Below, one piece after another: positions 58,360 through 63,395 of a stretch of DNA of 64,000 nucleotides (its first letter is position 1; each line of letters begins with the position of its first letter). Below the pieces are notes generated by a model. The model made no database searches, was not told the origin of the DNA, and saw only the letters and a list, made by a program, of their open reading frames with translations. The position numbers and the translations under genes are program-made. The DNA lies in assembly GCA_041166745.1 (NCBI GenBank), contig JBEEGH010000002.1:151837-215836 (forward strand). The letters are read 5' to 3'. Origin of the DNA: Acidimicrobiaceae bacterium. GTDB taxonomy: Bacteria; Actinomycetota; Acidimicrobiia; Acidimicrobiales; JACDCH01.

Positions 58360-58821
58360 TTGGCCGAGGACCCCAACGCTCGTGACGAGGATCGAGGACG
58401 GCTGCTCGACGCCTTGAACGACGAGGACACGTGGACCGCGCCGCCCCGGCGCCCGCAGACCCGTTCTTTGGGCTCGCCGTCGAGCTTGCCTCGGGAGCAG
58501 ATCTCGCAGACCGATCACGGCCTGCTGCTCGAGGTCTACGACCTGGTCCGCAAGCTGGTCGCCGCCAACGACGCATCGGGCACCGATGGGGCCGATCGGC
58601 AGTACGAGCGGCTCAGTTCCGCGCTACTCCTCTTTGGGCGGCGCGTCGACGCCCGGCTGGGAACCTTCGAGGAGCGACTCGACGGCATCCAAGCCCACCC
58701 GGATGCGTTTCCCGGCGATCTCCTTCGAACGCTCGCACGGGAGCAGGCGCAACTGCGCGACGACGTGACGGCGATGAAAGACGCCATCGAGCAGCTTCGT
58801 CGCGGCGTGCTCGGTTTGTAG
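58360..58821 (+). CDS. Hypothetical protein with a helical C-terminal half
   Basis: 153-aa ORF ending 4 nt before the nucleotidyltransferase gene start. No motif was recognised and the start is uncertain. Confidence 0.4.
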   Translation: MAEDPNARDEDRGRLLDALNDEDTWTAPPRRPQTRSLGSPSSLPREQISQTDHGLLLEVYDLVRKLVAANDASGTDGADRQYERLSSALLLFGRRVDARLGTFEERLDGIQAHPDAFPGDLLRTLAREQAQLRDDVTAMKDAIEQLRRGVLGL

Positions 58822-58825
58822 ACGC

Positions 58826-59812
58826 GTGACGCGCAACTCCGGACGCTCGGTTGACAAGTCCGCGGTTGCAGACCGAGGGGCGGCGTTGTTCAACGCCGCA
58901 CTCGCCCGAGAGGTTCTCGCGGTGTTGCAACGTGCGGGAGTCGACGGTCTCCTGCTGAAGGGCCCGACGACATCGCAGCTGCTCGCCGAGCCTGGCCGCA
59001 CCCGCTCATACGGAGACGTTGACGTTCTCGTTCGGCTGGACGACCTCGTTGCGGCACAAGAGGTGCTTCGACACGCTGGCTTTCATTCGATGTGGGAAGG
59101 TGCGGCCCTCGACGAGCTGAGTGGTCACGCGGTCGACCTCGTGCGCGGTCGAGCGCAGGTAGACCTCCACTGGCGCATTGCCGGCATTCGCCTTCCACCG
59201 GAGCCGGCCTGGCAAGTGCTCTGGGCGCATCGCATTGAGCGCTCGATCCCCGGCGGGGGAACCGCGGTGAGCCTCGACGACCGAGCTGCGCTGTTGCTCA
59301 TCGGCCTGCACGCGGCCGCAGATCCGCATCAGCATCCGAAGGTGATGGACGATCTCACTCGAGCAGTGCGTCTCCACGGGATCGACCGCTGGCGTGAGGC
59401 CGCAAGGTTGGCACAGCAACTCGAGGCTTCTGACTTCTTGGCCAGCGGCCTGCTTCTCGTCGCTGGCGGCGACTCGGTCGTTGACGCCCTAGACCTTCGG
59501 AGGTTCGTCTCCACCGAATCTGTGCTCCGTTCGCACAATCCCCCGCCGCTGGCGCTCGGCATCGAACGACTCGTTCACACGCAAGGTGCGTGGCCCAAGG
59601 TGAAGATCCTCGCCCGCGAACTCGTGCCCACGCCCAGCGGCCTCAGGTACTGGCGACCGAACACGGGTCGCTCGAAATGGGCGCTCGCGCTCGCATACCT
59701 CCAACGGCCGGTGTTCCTTCTTCGATCCCTCCGCCCTGCACTCGCCGCGATACGCCGCGCCCGCCGGACGGCCGCCGCCTCACGCGGCTGCACGTCGTCG
59801 AGCCCCTCTTAG
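58826..59812 (+). CDS. Uncharacterised nucleotidyltransferase family protein (NTP_transf_5-like)
   Basis: 328 aa. Sequence reads LQRAGVDGLLLKGPTTSQLL...RSYGDVDVLVRLDDLVAAQEVLRHAGF...VDLHWRI. The GxxDxD nucleotidyltransferase core and overall pattern match PF14907-type proteins as I recall them. Confidence 0.65.
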   Translation: MTRNSGRSVDKSAVADRGAALFNAALAREVLAVLQRAGVDGLLLKGPTTSQLLAEPGRTRSYGDVDVLVRLDDLVAAQEVLRHAGFHSMWEGAALDELSGHAVDLVRGRAQVDLHWRIAGIRLPPEPAWQVLWAHRIERSIPGGGTAVSLDDRAALLLIGLHAAADPHQHPKVMDDLTRAVRLHGIDRWREAARLAQQLEASDFLASGLLLVAGGDSVVDALDLRRFVSTESVLRSHNPPPLALGIERLVHTQGAWPKVKILARELVPTPSGLRYWRPNTGRSKWALALAYLQRPVFLLRSLRPALAAIRRARRTAAASRGCTSSSPS

Positions 59813-61275
59813 GACCACTCGGCAGGAACGATCTGAGGCGTCGTTAGTCCTTGGATGCGCCGCGCCGCGGAGGTCAAGGCGGTGGCGCGGCTCGCCAGGC
59901 CCATCGTCGCGTCAGCCCCGGCGACTACGGGAGACGCGACACGACCGCTGGCGTCGACGAGAACAGCCGACGGCGTGCCGCGGATTCCGTATGCCCTCCG
60001 TGTGAGCGAGCCGTTGTCGACCCCGATCATCGAGAAGCCAACAGCTCGGTTAGCCTCGACAGGACCGTGCGACACCACGAACAAGCTCGGTCCGTCCTCG
60101 GTCTGCATCTGCTCCCACTCACGCAACCGCGGGAGCAAGGCGCGGCAGAACTCGCACGTCGGGCTCCAGAAAACAAGCAACACCAGGCGACCGCGGAGCG
60201 CCAGGAGCGAGAGCTGTTGTTCTTCACCGTTCACATTCTCAATCGCGATGAGCGGCGCTTCAGCTCCCACCGCGGGGGTCATGCCGACGCCGTCGCCGGC
60301 TTCCAACCCCGCGACTGCGCCTTCAACGAGGTGGCGTATTGCATGCGCGCCGGCCGCGGTCGAGCCGACTCGTCCCGACGGAAAGATCAACACGGCACTA
60401 GGCGTTGCGAGTGCTGCATAGGCGGCCGCCACCTCGTCGCCCCCCTGAAGAAGCACTGGTGCAAGTTCGAACTCTGCGACCTTCCGTTGGTTCTCCTCGA
60501 CGGAGCCGCTACTGACGAGGGCAATCGATAAGACGTCGCCATAAGTCGACTGCCAGTCGGCCAACTCTGGGAGTAACGCACCACAGGGCTCACAGTCCGG
60601 GTCGATGAAAGCGAGCAGAAGCGGTCGGTCGGCGCGCAGCAGCGAGGCCAGATTCGTGTCGGCGCCGGCAAGGTCGGGCAACACGAACGCCGGTGCCCGT
60701 GTCCCGATGGGCAACCCGAACGCGCCCTCTATGAACGGCATCACCTGGGACGGTCGTCGAAGGAGGAAATGAACGACGGCGAGGCCTTCGACGCCGATCG
60801 TCGCTAGCAGCACAACGACCACGGTTCGGGGTGTCTCGTGCGAGAGCGCATAGTCAGCGACGGCCGTGCCGACTCCTGGCGCCTTCGGGCCGAACACGAC
60901 CACCACAAACCCCGCGATCAAAACGAGATTTCGGACAATGGACCGACCGCTGATCGGCGCTTGGCTGAGCGTGCCGAAACAGTTGCAGTTTGGGCGTTTG
61001 CCTTTCCGCAGGTTCACGGCAAGGAGGACCGTGAAGGCGCTCGTCACGGCGAATCCACTTATCGCCGCTGCGCGCGCTGAGCTCTCGAACAGAAGCCCTA
61101 GGACGATCGCCAACTCGATGAACGGGAGGCTGGTTGCGACGGCGCCAGCCATGCGCGTCGGTACGCCCAGGCCGGCCGCGGCCTGCCGAGTGGCACCACG
61201 ATCGGCGAGCTTCGCGAGTGCAGCCGTGGCAAACACTGTCGCGGCCACCACACGAATTACGACAACTGCGGCCAC
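59809..61275 (-). CDS. MauE/DoxX-like membrane domain fused to two thioredoxin-fold (TlpA/MauD-like) CxxC domains
   Basis: 488 aa. The N-terminus has four TM helices ending in KRPNCNCFG, a MauE-type motif. Domain 2 is LLAFIDPDCEPCGALLPELADW. Domain 3 is LLVFWSPTCEFCRALLPRLREW. Confidence 0.8.
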   Translation of the reverse strand: MAAVVVIRVVAATVFATAALAKLADRGATRQAAAGLGVPTRMAGAVATSLPFIELAIVLGLLFESSARAAAISGFAVTSAFTVLLAVNLRKGKRPNCNCFGTLSQAPISGRSIVRNLVLIAGFVVVVFGPKAPGVGTAVADYALSHETPRTVVVVLLATIGVEGLAVVHFLLRRPSQVMPFIEGAFGLPIGTRAPAFVLPDLAGADTNLASLLRADRPLLLAFIDPDCEPCGALLPELADWQSTYGDVLSIALVSSGSVEENQRKVAEFELAPVLLQGGDEVAAAYAALATPSAVLIFPSGRVGSTAAGAHAIRHLVEGAVAGLEAGDGVGMTPAVGAEAPLIAIENVNGEEQQLSLLALRGRLVLLVFWSPTCEFCRALLPRLREWEQMQTEDGPSLFVVSHGPVEANRAVGFSMIGVDNGSLTRRAYGIRGTPSAVLVDASGRVASPVVAGADATMGLASRATALTSAARRIQGLTTPQIVPAEWS

Positions 61276-61285
61276 CGAAATGAAG

Positions 61286-62032
61286 TTACCCGGCCAAGCG
61301 GTCGACGATCATCGACGCGGTCTCCCTCGCATCGCCGCGCGCCCCGCTGTAGGACGTCGCCGACGACACGAGGGTGCGCAGCGCGCGAAGCGTCACCGCA
61401 GGGCGGCTCCGGATGGTCAGGCTATGAGCCAACACGGCCATGAGGGCGTCCGCCGGCCGGATGCGTTGTGGCCGCCAGCTCGCGCCAGATTCGAACGACG
61501 TCAGCACCACCATGTGCGCCTTCACTGCGTCAATCCCCACTTTGAACCCGTCGTACGGATCCGCAAAATACAACGGATCTCGAAACAGCAGTGGCCTCGG
61601 GAACGGATCGATGCGGCCATCGGCGCCAACTACCGCATGTTCGTCTGAGTAGTACGTCCCGCCTGCCTCGACGAGCGCGGCTACAAGCGTCGTCTTTCCT
61701 GAGTGCGATGCCCCAGGGATGACCACCGCCCGGTTTGCGAACGCGACAACCCCAGCGTGGACCATCGCATGGTCGGTTGCGACCTCGACGAGCTGCGTTT
61801 GGAGATCCTCGAAGAACGCGTGCCGCAGCGACTCAGGGCTCTCGGCTGAGGACAGCACGACCCCGTTCCGTCGCAACGAATGAAGCGAACCGCTAGTTAC
61901 GACTGAGTACGAGACGTCCGACACGTGGCAATCCGCGGCGGCGCGCCGAAGATTTCGGCCGAGGGTTGTTAGAACGGGCTCGGGACCGAGCAGCGCGATG
62001 CGGAGAGGACCAACTTGGACGACGTGCTCCAC
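61286..62032 (-). CDS. HPr-kinase-related P-loop protein
   Basis: 248 aa. VHAGVVAFANRAVVIPGASHSGKTTLVAALVEAGGTYYSDEHAVV matches the HprK C-terminal domain P-loop context. It starts 10 nt after the upstream stop. Confidence 0.7.
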   Translation of the reverse strand: MEHVVQVGPLRIALLGPEPVLTTLGRNLRRAAADCHVSDVSYSVVTSGSLHSLRRNGVVLSSAESPESLRHAFFEDLQTQLVEVATDHAMVHAGVVAFANRAVVIPGASHSGKTTLVAALVEAGGTYYSDEHAVVGADGRIDPFPRPLLFRDPLYFADPYDGFKVGIDAVKAHMVVLTSFESGASWRPQRIRPADALMAVLAHSLTIRSRPAVTLRALRTLVSSATSYSGARGDARETASMIVDRLAG

Positions 62033-62042
62033 CGCACCAGAG

Positions 62043-62693
62043 CTAGGCAGGTGCCTTGCACTTACCGGAACCGTTCACGCCGTTGAGGCTGCAGCACAGG
62101 TGTGCGTCTGCCACCGTGACGCCGTCGGCGATGCAAGCAACGCATGTTCCAGTGTCAGGGCTTGGGACGTTGCACCGGCAGTTGCCTGTCCCTGCCGTGT
62201 TCTCGCCTGTACACGGAGAGTTGACCCGATTGCAGGTGCCAGCGCATGTAGCCGCGGCTGCGGGTGTTGGGGCGACGATGGTAGTAATGACCGGAATCGT
62301 GGCTGCCGCCACGCCCATCCGAATGAGGAGCTGCCGCCGGGACAACCGCCGCACTCCCTCTTGTGATTGCTCGGCATCGGACGGCGGGCCCAACAGTAGG
62401 GAGGCGGCGTCCAGCAGCGCGATGGCTTCGACAACGATCTCCAGGGGAAGGTCGCTCTTGGAGTCTCGGGACACCTCCTGTCGGAGCGCTTCGATATCGC
62501 GTGACCCGTCGCAAAGGCGCCACACGGCGGCCGTGGTCTCGTTCAAGTGGTGAACGGTGTCATCTCTCTCGTCGTAAACCACGAGCTCGTCGTCCATCGG
62601 TTCGACCAGAAGCCGTTCTGATCGAGCAGTCGGCCGGTCCGCAGTCATACGCGCATCGTACACCGCGGCATCTTTGCCCTGCACCAGGGGCAT
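62043..62693 (-). CDS. PqqD-like (RRE) domain protein fused to a twin-arginine/TM segment and a C-terminal 10-Cys module
   Basis: 216 aa, with ATG at 62693 preceded by GGGAG. The PqqD-like core is LLVEPMDDELVVYDERDDTVHHLNETTAAVWRLCDGSRDIEALRQEV...IVVEAIALLDAASLL. This is followed by RRLSRRQLLIRMGVAAATIPVITTIVAPTPAAAA. The C-terminal module is TCAGTCNRVNSPCTGENTAGTGNCRCNVPSPDTGTCVACIADGVTVADAHLCCSLNGVNGSGKCKAPA. Confidence 0.7.
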   Translation of the reverse strand: MPLVQGKDAAVYDARMTADRPTARSERLLVEPMDDELVVYDERDDTVHHLNETTAAVWRLCDGSRDIEALRQEVSRDSKSDLPLEIVVEAIALLDAASLLLGPPSDAEQSQEGVRRLSRRQLLIRMGVAAATIPVITTIVAPTPAAAATCAGTCNRVNSPCTGENTAGTGNCRCNVPSPDTGTCVACIADGVTVADAHLCCSLNGVNGSGKCKAPA

Positions 62694-62787
62694 ACAGACG
62701 CTCCCTGCGGATCAGATGGCGAATGACTAGCCCATCGTGACTGGGACGTCATATCCCGTAGAGGTCATTTTGCCGATGTGCCTACAG

Positions 62788-62833
62788 CCGCTCTTGCGGA
62801 ACGTCGAACCCATGAGCAATCCCGCAAGAGCGG
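62788..62833. other. 12-bp perfect stem (CCGCTCTTGCGG / CCGCAAGAGCGG) with a 22-nt loop in the divergent intergenic region upstream of the WxL-like gene
   Basis: Read directly. The left arm is 62788-62799 and the right arm is 62822-62833. It ends 28 nt before the ATG at 62862. Confidence 0.4.
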
Positions 62834-62861
62834 GTTCGATCCCAGCCCAAAGGTGTTTCAC

Positions 62862-63395
62862 ATGAACAAGAAAATGCTCGGAGCGGGCCTGGTCATCGCC
62901 ACCTCGCTTCTCGCCAGTATCAGCCCAGCTTTCGGCGACATCGGCGTCACCGTCGTTCCGGGGACTCGTGCCGCGAGCGCCACCGACCTCGTACTTCCGG
63001 AGGTGAACTCGGAACACGTGTCGCGCTACACGTCCGGCGCCGTGACACTTTGGGCCGACGACAGCACAGGATCCGGCGCAGGGTGGGCCGTCACCGTTCA
63101 GGCTGACGACTTCACCGGTCCCGGAGCCATTCCGGCCGCAAACCTGTCCGCCTATTGGGCAGCCCCGGTCGCGACCATTGCCGGCCAGCCCGTGGACGCG
63201 GACGGCGGGCCTGACATTCAGAGCAGTCTTGCTCTGGGGCCGCTCGACCAGCCGCGGACGCTCATGCAGGCCTTCGAGGGCTTCGGCATGGGGACCTACT
63301 CGCAGCAAGTCGGTCTTCTGCTCAAGGTGCCAGCCGACACATTGGCCGGCAGCTACACGACGGAGTTGACCGTCAGCATCACCGCCGCACCGTAA
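62862..63395 (+). CDS. Secreted WxL-domain-like surface protein
   Basis: I chose the internal ATG at 62862. The signal peptide is MNKKMLGAGLVIATSLLASISPAFG. Also present are GAGWAVTVQADDFTG and the C-terminal GSYTTELTVSITAAP, which resemble WxL-domain proteins. Confidence 0.55.
   Translation: MNKKMLGAGLVIATSLLASISPAFGDIGVTVVPGTRAASATDLVLPEVNSEHVSRYTSGAVTLWADDSTGSGAGWAVTVQADDFTGPGAIPAANLSAYWAAPVATIAGQPVDADGGPDIQSSLALGPLDQPRTLMQAFEGFGMGTYSQQVGLLLKVPADTLAGSYTTELTVSITAAP

Follow-up and report, generated by a model that had tools for sequence, protein, structure and literature searches.

What is made by a gene in which a domain of the PqqD type, a signal-like segment and a cysteine-rich tail follow one another in a single polypeptide? 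The question was raised by an entry in the ORF list of 216 amino acids (62043..62693, minus strand; stop codon at 62043-62045) within the window, i.e., the whole stretch of 64,000 nucleotides of Acidimicrobiaceae DNA that was analysed. A sequence-only reading had drawn attention to positions 62046-62351, which do correspond to residues 115-216 of this frame, and had offered three explanations: a type II-like membrane anchor that displays the tail outside, a separate secreted precursor begun at Met126, or a PqqD domain that acts as a giant leader. The last of these fitted best, once combined with an anchor of the type II kind that is transient; it is taken to be transient rather than permanent because the segment has the geometry of a signal peptide (a 16-residue uncharged core, an invariant proline and A-x-A). 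The reading preferred here, to which a probability of about one half is attached, is that the protein is a RiPP precursor resembling those of linear polyphosphorylated peptides (LPP), in which the RRE is fused in cis and the leader also serves as a signal peptide of the Tat type. The decisive context is provided by adjacent HprK-like and NTP_transf_5 genes and by the likeness to the LPP and phospho-lasso pathways, which the sequence-only reading had missed.

Gene structure and family

The ATG at 62693 that starts the 216-residue frame was preceded by AGGGAG 7 nt upstream; the JGI gene call begins at M33 and loses strand β1 of the RRE. The full-length protein, an RRE with a Tat-like signal and a Cys-rich peptide precursor, could be divided into four parts: the PqqD/RRE domain, the motif SRRQLLI, a hydrophobic stretch of 22 residues and a tail of 68 residues with 10 cysteines.

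A database search returned about 100 full-length homologues, and each of these had the RR motif, the hydrophobic segment, AP-x-x-A-x-A and a Cys-rich tail. A protein search with the C-terminal 104 residues alone gave zero matches, missing even the query protein itself. GTDB species genomes were searched with a hand-made degenerate DNA pattern, for which 93 of 94 matches were true members with the same four features; the pattern covers the APTPA subset only, such that the taxonomic spread obtained is a lower bound. Hosts included Acidobacteriota, Armatimonadota, Gemmatimonadota, Myxococcota, Actinomycetota and others, in all at least eight phyla, most of them uncultured, and all members seen so far were MAGs of soil phyla. 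A profile search at E<=1e-30 produced 2,514 representatives (clusters at 50% identity). Family members bear no annotation beyond 'PqqD family protein' or 'hypothetical protein'. The gene belongs to a family that is large, has so far escaped study and occurs in uncultured bacteria of soil.

The RRE domain

The PqqD/RRE domain occupied residues 21-100 (62394..62633, minus strand). It matched PF05402 with 29.5 bits, against a gathering score of 23.4, and the same model matched 43 of 44 family members. The AF2 model (pLDDT 92-96) is a winged helix, in which three helices accompany a sheet of three strands; confidence for this domain exceeded 90 in both structure predictions, i.e., those of the window protein and of the homologue P0071. 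The top Foldseek matches in the PDB were the TbiB1 and TfuB1 leader complexes (lasso B1) and PqqD, where TbiB1 had a TM-score of 0.72 (normalised to target), and TfuB1 and PqqD came next. When the PDB was searched with the family profile, weak matches to PqqD, TfuB1 and TbiB1 were the only ones returned, and no LppB entry was among them.

A winged-helix fold would also suit a membrane-bound regulator of the ToxR/CadC kind, with its winged helix on DNA and its tail sensing an outside cue, which controls the polysaccharide genes. A few members did produce weak Pfam matches to HTH_20, MarR_2 or PadR, and response regulators and EPS genes occurred near some loci. However, the best matches in sequence and structure were peptide-binding RREs, rather than DNA-binding wHTH proteins. 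The tails, which were generally hypervariable and 20-90 residues long, and in some cases were pure low-complexity repeats, are unlike sensor domains, while the tight operon linkage is to an HprK-like kinase and a nucleotidyltransferase, which are not regulatory targets. A regulator is accordingly the most remote of the explanations considered here.

An internal twin-arginine segment

The Tat consensus is S-R-R-x-F-L-K, and Tat signals are N-terminal by definition (PMC7317946). Residues 118-124 (SRRQLLI) had been recognised as Tat-like from the sequence, and this was borne out by the family consensus, [S/T]-R-R-x-Φ-Φ-[K/R]. With the aid of this consensus and Tat HMMs, the twin-arginine n-region was placed at LSRRQLLIR, residues 117-125 (62319..62345, minus strand). 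Among 186 non-redundant members, the pair was RR in 184 and KR in 2; S or T preceded it at -1 in 169, K or R followed at +5 in 162, positions +3 and +4 were hydrophobic, and 142 members matched [ST]RRxΦΦ[KR] strictly. Tat HMMs responded less uniformly. Of 44 members, 17 were matched at this segment by TIGR01409 (E<=1; best 4e-4) and 15 by formate_TAT; most members were below cut-off, including one homologue at 16.3 bits on TIGR01409 against a cut-off of 16.7. For the window protein, formate_TAT alone was reported (E = 0.22), TIGR01409 being absent at E<=1.

The hydrophobic stretch that had been noted behind the motif is present (GVAAATIPVITTIVAPTPAAAA, residues 127-148), albeit with a length of 22 residues rather than 23. 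Its h-region was delimited as MGVAAATIPVITTIV, residues 126-140 (62274..62318, minus strand), using the core length in the family, the invariant proline and an AF2 strand, and it is followed by a c-region, APTPAAA, at residues 141-147 (62253..62273, minus strand), in which the A, the P and the A-x-A are invariant or near-invariant. The uncharged core had a median length of 16 residues across the family (range 12-18), a mean Kyte-Doolittle value of 2.1, 8% Gly and the invariant proline, and about 30 residues separated RR from A-x-A. A signal peptidase I site is predicted from these features at A145-A146-A147/A148, the slash marking the cut.

The position of the segment, some 115 residues into the protein, had been singled out as abnormal, and it is both real and conserved across the family: the signal begins at residue 117, behind a folded domain of 80 residues, and the same is true of all homologues, so that it is not N-terminal. 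The sequence would suit the Sec/YidC route equally well, and disulfide-rich peptides are normally Sec substrates. The only internal Tat signals known follow Sec-inserted helices (PMC3471235, PMC5449189). These belong to Sec/Tat dual-targeted proteins such as the actinobacterial Rieske protein, where a C-terminal domain is taken across by an RR motif and hydrophobic segment that are not N-terminal (PMC3471235, PMC5449189), much as proposed here. However, in those proteins the signal comes after Sec-inserted TM helices, remains uncleaved as the last helix and carries a globular domain containing a cofactor, whereas in this family the signal lies behind a soluble folded domain, includes an A-x-A site and has a peptide of 20-90 residues as its cargo.

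Possible internal translation starts

According to a two-product explanation, an internal start at TTG-L117 would yield, in addition to the full-length protein, a conventional Tat/Sec pre-peptide of 100 residues, recognised in trans by a separately made RRE protein. In its favour, GAGGGAG stands 8 nt upstream of the TTG of L117 in the window, and the homologues P0002 and P0003, together with those at loci L067 and L089, which are the closest, have Met at the position equivalent to L117; no consistent SD was found upstream of these internal Met codons, however. A start-capable codon just before RR was present in only 18 of 98 loci, TTG was not enriched at the Leu preceding RR (4 of 22, against a background of 15%), and an SD-like sequence was combined with a start codon in 3 of 98. 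Furthermore, the RRE and the signal-tail halves, for which the sequence-only reading had proposed a search for separate genes, were never split in about 190 members, nor was there a stop codon between them. Met126, proposed by that reading as the start of a secreted precursor, lies past the RR motif and is not conserved, and does not serve. Given these counts and the want of a consistent SD, a start just before RR was rejected as a feature of the family, and the two-product explanation is very improbable. For the window alone, judging by GAGGGAG-N8-TTG, a minor internal product from L117 may nonetheless be made.

Putative leader motif and predicted cleavage site

The family-wide motif in this region was Φ-x-x-P-x-V ... 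A-P-x-x-A-x-A, where the first proline was invariant and the P and V of P-x-V stood at -14 and -12 from A-x-A. The h-region of the window protein contains Φ-x-x-P134-x-I136 and a predicted β-strand, ITTIV, which together represent a putative RRE-binding leader motif. This strand was predicted by AF2 at residues 136-140, and an equivalent strand, VISIV, was predicted in P0071; in both of these independent runs, the strand began just past the invariant P-x-V. The tail of P0071 is only 13 residues long, and so the RRE is the sole possible sheet partner of VISIV. On the basis of these models, the RRE is predicted to bind its own leader motif as an added β-strand. AF2 models no membrane, and docking of the hydrophobic segment on the RRE may be an artefact of that.

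In LPP clusters, the leader reads YxxPxVLxHQxIxFET/xxS, with P and V at -13 and -11 from the cut (PMC13381572). The Tyr of the YxxPxV motif was not conserved in the present family, where aliphatic residues replaced it. Immediately past A-x-A, Ser or Thr occurred at +2/+3 in 300 of 310 members, where about 33% would be expected; the window protein has T149 at +2 (codon 62247-62249, minus strand), which is a candidate phosphosite. The Thr within APTPA was also considered as a kinase target and rejected, since the wider family relaxes this sequence to AP-x-x-A-x-A (APEAAQA, APSAAQA and others).

The alternative to a cleaved leader is an uncleaved type II membrane protein, in which the RR-hydrophobic segment is a permanent Sec/YidC signal-anchor. 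This anchor would fix the RRE to the inner face of the membrane and, by way of the RRE, the kinase and the nucleotidyltransferase too, and a small disulfide-rich or low-complexity tail would be shown outside, for example in surface-glycan machinery. Positive charges do precede the hydrophobic segment, the parity of the cysteines indicates that the tail is exported, polysaccharide genes surround the locus here and in several homologues, and cleavage at A-x-A is itself a prediction. Against this, an uncharged core of 12-18 residues with an invariant proline in mid-segment is short for a stable helix, and AF2 did not predict a single long helix. The A-x-A preceded by Pro is invariant, S/T-RR-x-Φ-Φ-K/R is tighter than the positive-inside rule needs, and the spacing to P-x-V agrees with the geometry of the leader peptidase in LPP. 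The permanent anchor is therefore regarded as unlikely, and a leader that doubles as a cleavable signal is preferred.

The cysteine-rich tail

The tail (residues 149-216), described from the sequence as 68 residues with 10 Cys, was confirmed as such; its cysteines are at positions 150, 154, 161, 172, 174, 184, 187, 200, 201 and 212 (spacings x3, x6, x10, x1, x9, x2, x12, x0 and x10), and the chance of 10 Cys in 68 residues is about 2e-9 for a background of 1%. The predicted mature or core peptide, delimited through the S/T position and the even-Cys rule, begins one residue earlier and comprises residues 148-216 (62046..62252, minus strand), i.e., 69 residues with all 10 Cys. Conservation of the Cys pattern, on which the sequence-only reading had staked its module, was found in the two closest homologues, P0002 and P0003 (51-55% identity), but not in the wider family, which was hypervariable. 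The 10-Cys module is one among many interchangeable tails, and not a conserved domain.

Across the family, the number of cysteines per tail was even in 264 cases and odd in 11 (p = 5e-64), from which it follows that the tail must reach an oxidising compartment. The six-cysteine knottin framework, C-C-CC-C-C, was present in 47 of 308 tails, and some tails matched the Pfam models Conotoxin_I2, Toxin_12 or Omega-toxin. The tail in the window has its 10 Cys in a different framework, without the six-Cys knottin arrangement, and no Pfam model matched it; AF2 confidence here was low (pLDDT 32-72). PDB sequence searches with this tail, and with the neighbouring kinase, gave no meaningful match.

Gene neighbourhood

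An HprK-related kinase-like gene of 248 amino acids, with the P-loop GASHSGKTT, begins 10 nt downstream of the precursor frame and in the same operon (61286..62032, minus strand; TIGR04352 HprK_rel_A, E = 2e-16, below cut-off). It was 38% identical to the kinase beside P0071 (E = 3e-41). Such a gene was adjacent in 39 of 53 well-flanked loci (74%), and in about a quarter of the well-flanked loci no kinase was present within the stored 8 kb.

Next in the window is a gene of 488 amino acids (59809..61275, minus strand) that fuses a MauE/DoxX membrane domain to two thioredoxin/TlpA/MauD-like CxxC domains (Pfam MauE, AhpC-TSA and Thioredoxin_2); its NCBIfam matches to MauD and ResA were below cut-off (62 vs. 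189 bits for MauD). A gene of this kind also followed the kinase at L105 and L107, the loci of the closest homologues, and the linkage held for all three members of the 10-Cys subfamily; it was found again at L028, L067 and L089, where tails have 10-14 Cys. The fusion is a putative dedicated disulfide machinery. Methylamine dehydrogenase has a small exported subunit rich in disulfides, which depends on the membrane protein MauE and on MauD, a thioredoxin-like protein; here too, MauE and two thioredoxin domains stand beside a 10-Cys peptide. However, the score falls short of what the MauD equivalog requires, mau genes are absent and the domains form a single protein.

The third neighbour is an NTP_transf_5 nucleotidyltransferase-family gene of 328 amino acids (58826..59812, plus strand; PF14907, 70 bits), which is convergent with the operon on the other strand and 2.2 kb from the precursor frame. 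The protein is divergent, with a shorter N-terminus than its relatives. Adjacent NTP_transf_5 genes were observed in 26 of 53 well-flanked loci (49%), and in family loci the HprK-like and NTP_transf_5 genes usually overlap in the same operon.

Neither a SpI-like or SipW-like peptidase nor an ABC/MsbA-like exporter was present among the Pfam-annotated neighbours at 7 loci and 10 rescanned unannotated neighbours, and the lack of a dedicated peptidase or exporter nearby is in keeping with export by a general route and cleavage by the general signal peptidase. PADLOC returned no match to a defence system.

Comparison with known systems

LPP clusters (LppA/B/K/N/S/D) are RiPP clusters described from Bacillota, to which LPPs were reported as restricted, and their precursor LppA is polyphosphorylated on Ser3 (Popov et al., Nat Commun 2026; PMC13381572). 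The present family shares with them its RRE, HprK-like kinase and (uncharacterised) NTP transferase, as well as a precursor with x-x-P-x-V in its leader and a hypervariable C-terminus (tens to about 200 residues in LPP). In both, a hydroxyl residue is conserved at position 2-3 of the core and the clusters lie within surface-polysaccharide loci; leader removal of the signal-peptidase type, 13-14 residues past the Pro, occurs in LPP and is predicted for this family. There are differences. The RRE and the precursor form one frame in every member examined, where LPP clusters have a stand-alone RRE protein and a short precursor encoded by its own gene; the leader is hydrophobic, with a twin-arginine motif and an A-x-A site; and no gene for a SipW-like LppS peptidase or MsbA-like exporter was seen here. 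The aromatic Y/W of the motif in LPP and lasso leaders is aliphatic, tails are mostly disulfide-rich and the hosts belong to several soil phyla.

For the phospho-lasso peptides paeninodin and pseudomycoidin, the linear precursor is phosphorylated on a Ser by an HPr-kinase homologue, and the phosphate receives a hexose from a nucleotidyltransferase (PMC8498205). A PqqD-type RRE (B1), an HPr-kinase homologue and a nucleotidyltransferase are again shared, and lasso B1 provided the best structural match. However, neither a lasso cyclase (Asn-synthetase-like) nor a transglutaminase-like B2 protease appeared among the Pfam annotations of the 20-kb locus in the window (L001), and the lasso kinase acts on a C-terminal Ser, which is not conserved in the tails of this family. 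The same pairing of kinase and RRE genes exists in HPr-rel-A (TIGR04352 with TIGR04353, PqqD_rel_X), which supplied the best NCBIfam matches to both; the scores were far under the equivalog cut-offs (59.9 vs. 200 bits and 22.6 vs. 35, respectively), and TIGR04353 is a stand-alone PqqD model of 74 positions, without signal or tail.

Cytoplasmic chaperones of the TorD/DmsD type bind the Tat signal of their substrate and hold back export until the substrate is mature. There is a likeness to the fused RRE, which AF2 predicted to attach to the h-region of the signal in the same chain, but the fold is unrelated and TorD/DmsD-type chaperones act in trans on cofactor enzymes. A literature search found no description of an RRE fused in cis to a substrate whose leader is also the export signal.

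A proposed pathway

Taken as an LPP-like precursor with its RRE in cis, the 216-residue protein would be made in the cytoplasm, where its N-terminal RRE folds, as domain matches and structure prediction agree. The RRE may then bind Φ-x-x-P-x-[V/I]-x-[S/T]-Φ-Φ in the same chain (residues 131-140) as an added β-strand, as modelled by AF2. By analogy with LppK on Ser3 and with pseudomycoidin, the HprK-like kinase would phosphorylate the Ser/Thr that lies 2-3 residues past A-x-A, here T149, and the NTP_transf_5 enzyme may decorate the phosphate. LppK refuses Thr at its phosphosite (PMC13381572), yet Thr is what the window protein has. The S-R-R-x-Φ-Φ-[K/R] motif and the 16-residue h-region would take the tail across the membrane while the RRE remains inside, probably by Tat, which could carry a bulky modified peptide. 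Signal peptidase I would cut between A147 and A148, at A145-x-A147, and free the 69-residue peptide. Considering the Cys parity and the gene linkage, the 10 Cys would form five disulfides outside the cell, aided by the co-operonic MauE-thioredoxin fusion. Hypervariable tails and a cell-surface glycan locus suggest a function at the surface, in biofilm or in antagonism.

A bolder version of this pathway can be entertained tentatively, although the odds are against it. The family might be a very large new class of RiPP-like secreted peptides from uncultured bacteria of soil, in which a genuine Tat signal is the leader, the recognition element is in the same polypeptide, and the fused RRE acts as an in-cis Tat proofreading chaperone, clamping the signal peptide of its own chain until the Ser/Thr at +2/+3 is modified by the HprK-like kinase and the nucleotidyltransferase. 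Tat would export the modified tail and the housekeeping signal peptidase would be the leader peptidase, giving knottin-like disulfide-rich or repeat peptides with an N-terminal phospho-glycosyl group. Were this so, a signal-peptide-based ancestor would be suggested for the SipW-like leader peptidase found in LPP clusters of Bacillota.

The family bears on several wider matters. Strategies for precursor searches would change, as members carry such uninformative annotations; the peptide chemistry of HprK-type kinases and nucleotidyltransferases, described in 2026 as confined to Bacillota, would take in about 2,500 sequence clusters and no fewer than eight phyla. For Tat biology, the family is a natural system in which to examine an internal signal behind a soluble folded domain, and it indicates a large reservoir of bacterial disulfide-rich, knottin-like peptides. 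Its repeated siting in surface-polysaccharide loci ties it to the question of what role LPP-type peptides play. All-against-all clustering of neighbouring ORFs, in which antisense ORFs blurred the groups, added only occasional neighbours, namely regulators of the LuxR type and Wzz-like proteins.

Gene structure and family

The precursor gene was a 216 aa ORF on the minus strand (62043..62693), with AGGGAG 7 nt 5' of the ATG at 62693; the feature under study was its C-terminal half (aa 115–216). A PqqD domain (Pfam) scored above the gathering score at aa 36–76. JGI calls this gene shorter, from M33 (window 62597–62693, minus strand), and the call removes the first β-strand of the RiPP recognition element (RRE), which AlphaFold2 (AF2) predicted with a pLDDT of 96. 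JGI also shortens the HprK-like gene (190 aa, against 248 aa in the ORF conserved in relatives) and the MauE gene (447 against 488 aa). The sequence-only reading had reported SRRQLLI at aa 118–124 and 10 Cys in the final 68 aa, and both were present; the hydrophobic stretch GVAAATIPVITTIVAPTPAAAA was also found, at aa 127–148, but was 22 rather than 23 residues long.

A word-indexed search recovered 100 homologues of 138–363 aa with the same layout. When a profile was run against 1.84 billion cluster representatives, 2,514 matched at E <= 1e-30 and 6,841 did so at E <= 1e-10. A degenerate DNA pattern (L-P-x-[VI]-x-[ST]-x-x-A-P-T-P-A-x-A), applied to GTDB species genomes, matched 94 stretches, 93 of them true family members. 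All matches were in MAGs, the majority from Acidobacteriota and the remainder from Armatimonadota, Gemmatimonadota, Myxococcota, Vulcanimicrobiota/Eremiobacterota, Methylomirabilota, Binatia, Chloroflexota and Solirubrobacterales. The architecture is a family and not an accident, and is widespread in uncultured soil bacteria. One member is labelled only 'PqqD family protein' by NCBI and others 'hypothetical protein' by JGI; no description of RRE, signal and tail in one protein was found in the literature searched. Tandem paralogues also occur: two adjoining copies with tails ending ALGLPPL in an acidobacterial MAG, and two 20-Cys copies about 1.4 kb apart in a Vulcanimicrobiota MAG (tandem copies at L086, 290–1592, and at L017, 5737–6571, with L036, 12–918, on one contig, JBFWNU010000002.1).

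The RRE and the twin-arginine segment

The AF2 model of aa 21–100 comprised three strands and three helices (pLDDT 92–96), and its best structural matches in the PDB were TbiB1 and TfuB1, two lasso B1 RREs whose structures include their leader peptides; PqqD, NisB, CteB and SuiB came next. ITTIV (aa 136–140) was modelled as a β-strand, as was the equivalent VISIV (pLDDT ~78) in a second, independent model, that of the homologue P0071; its tail is only 13 aa long, and the sole sheet available to the VISIV strand is the RRE. From these models, the canonical RRE-leader binding mode is predicted to operate in cis.

Motif counts, anchored on the arginines of 186 non-redundant members, showed RR in 184 and KR in two. 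Position -1 was Ser or Thr in 169, +2 was Glu, Gln or Asp, +3 and +4 were hydrophobic, and +5 was Arg or Lys in 162; 142 matched [ST]RRxΦΦ[KR] strictly. On sequence grounds, this consensus is the Tat motif, S-R-R-x-F-L-K (PMC7317946), and the internal Tat-like signal proposed earlier is upheld across the family. Two curated Tat-signal HMMs matched the segment in 17 and 15 of 44 members, and weakly in the window protein. A Sec/YidC route would fit the sequence equally well.

The main alternative is that the segment is a permanent type II anchor. However, the uncharged core was short (median 16 aa, range 12–18) with an invariant Pro, A-P-x-x-A-x-A was also invariant, and RR lay about 30 aa from the end of that motif. 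Because of the short core, the Pro and this spacing, the segment was interpreted as having the geometry of a signal peptide rather than of a stable transmembrane anchor; nor did the AF2 models of the window protein and P0071 form one long helix here, leaving an anchor improbable. Known internal Tat signals lie downstream of Sec-inserted helices and are uncleaved (PMC3471235, PMC5449189); a Tat signal placed behind a soluble domain, and perhaps bound by that domain, would be a new arrangement.

Translation might instead begin internally, as the sequence-only reading had suggested for Met126. That start was not supported, and starts inside the gene are not a trait of the family. In the window gene, however, GAGGGAG occurs 8 nt upstream of a TTG codon at L117, two codons before RR (62340–62365, minus strand), and so L117 may, though improbably, serve as a start there. 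In the four closest MauE-linked relatives this residue is Met, but no Shine-Dalgarno sequence accompanies it consistently.

Tails

Sequence after A-x-A was hypervariable (median 41 aa) apart from one hydroxyl residue: 300 of 310 members carried Ser or Thr at +2 or +3, where tail composition alone would predict ~33%. In the window protein this residue was T149. Among 308 non-redundant tails, 264 had an even number of Cys (4 to 52) and only 11 an odd number (p = 5e-64). The knottin framework C-C-CC-C-C was present in 47, and some tails matched conotoxin or spider-toxin Pfam families. All 10 Cys positions of the window protein were conserved in P0002 and P0003, the only two homologues to share this framework. 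P0081 (363 aa, metagenomic) had 52 Cys in approximately eight tandem C-x6-C-x5-CC-x3-C-x4-5-C units and matched Conotoxin_I2; it resembles a poly-knottin array of bacterial origin, preceded by the family's RRE and signal module.

The other 33 tails lacked Cys and were low-complexity or collagen-like repeats, or belonged to the ALGLPPL-ending class. The several kinds of Cys-free tail (loci L037, 3800–4556; L063, 4438–5251, minus strand; L020, L049, L061, L068 and L085–L087) included collagen-like GPT/GST repeats in Solirubrobacterales; SPT, Gly/Asn, Pro/Lys or His/Pro repeats; and a Terriglobia class of 66–84 aa, always with ALGLPPL at the C-terminus. Both the RRE-type matches and the character of the tails make a ToxR-like regulator an unlikely reading.

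Gene neighbourhood

The precursor gene was the first of its operon. An HprK-related kinase-like gene (61286–62032) began 10 nt past its stop codon, followed by a gene (59809–61275) in which a MauE membrane domain is joined to two thioredoxin-like CxxC domains; an NTP_transf_5 gene (58826–59812, plus strand) was convergent with the operon. Of the 53 loci flanked by at least 1.3 kb on either side, the HprK-like gene adjoined the family gene in 39, NTP_transf_5 in 26, and both in 23, typically on one strand in the order kinase, fusion gene, nucleotidyltransferase, and frequently overlapping. The window kinase was 38% identical to that beside P0071 (E = 3e-41) and retained its P-loop. The MauE-thioredoxin fusion was specific to the subfamily with most Cys (window, L105, L107, L028, L067 and L089); L105 and L107, the loci of the two closest homologues, had a three-gene operon identical to the window's. 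No signal-peptidase-like or ABC-exporter gene belonged to the conserved unit in the loci examined.

Cell-surface glycan genes (Bac_transf, DUF4012, GT4s, ABC-2 transporter, WbsX) flanked the window operon on both sides, and exopolysaccharide export genes flanked several acidobacterial loci, without being present beside every locus of the family.

Comparison with LPP systems

Linear polyphosphorylated peptide (LPP) clusters are restricted to Bacillota according to Popov et al. 2026 and are located within capsular polysaccharide loci. Their RRE, LppB, is a protein of its own, and the HprK-like kinase LppK polyphosphorylates Ser3 of the core. The clusters further encode LppN, an uncharacterised NTP transferase; LppS, a signal peptidase I homologue of the SipW-like type that requires the RRE in order to remove the leader; and an MsbA-like exporter. 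LPP precursors are 35–200 aa long; their N-terminus is conserved (YxxPxVLxHQxIxFET|xxS) and their C-terminus hypervariable (PMC13381572). The family shares the triad of RRE, kinase and nucleotidyltransferase, a conserved leader with a variable core, P-x-V 14 residues before the predicted cut (13 in LPPs), a hydroxyl residue at +2/+3 of the predicted core, and the glycan-locus setting. It differs in that RRE and precursor form a single protein, the leader is hydrophobic, carries a twin-arginine motif and ends in a bacterial A-x-A site, the LPP Tyr is replaced by an aliphatic residue, cores are mostly disulfide-rich, no dedicated peptidase or exporter was found in the loci examined, and the hosts lie outside Bacillota. 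Judged from sequence, the family is best read as an LPP-like RiPP system that has its RRE in cis and a signal peptide for a leader.

The most likely mechanism, proposed from sequence, models and analogy, would begin in the cytoplasm, where the RRE would bind its own leader; the kinase, and perhaps the nucleotidyltransferase, would then modify Ser/Thr +2/+3. Enzymes of these types act in phospho-lasso pathways, where a Ser of the precursor is phosphorylated and the phosphate receives a hexose (PMC8498205). The twin-arginine signal would carry the tail through the membrane, Tat making sense over Sec because the peptide would bear a bulky modification beside its signal. Signal peptidase I would cut at A-x-A, and Cys would pair outside the cell, assisted in the window's subfamily by the MauE-thioredoxin protein. 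The earlier observation is confirmed, and its idea of the PqqD domain as a 'giant leader' survives alongside the internal signal, without the Met126 start.

Other features of the loci

The window NTP_transf_5 matched its Pfam profile from position 56 only and aligned weakly with a 421-aa relative in L103 (34% over 61 aa); a 153-aa ORF of no known family ended 5 nt before it (region 58360–59812, plus strand). This copy may be truncated or split, or may be a divergent paralogue. Divergent from the operon was a secreted WxL-like protein (PF13731, just under cut-off; 62778–63395, plus strand), with a further signal-peptide-bearing ORF downstream (63468 to the window end, plus strand, running off the window). 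The region from 62778 to the window end looks like a WxL-type cell-surface gene cluster; such clusters are usually found in monoderm bacteria. In three acidobacterial loci (L003, L006 and L007), the cassette lay between an exopolysaccharide export block (Wzz/GNVR, Poly_export, BBP2_2) and GYF_2/PatA_N response-regulator, GGDEF, EAL and Wzy_C genes, which suggests co-regulation with c-di-GMP-controlled EPS production.
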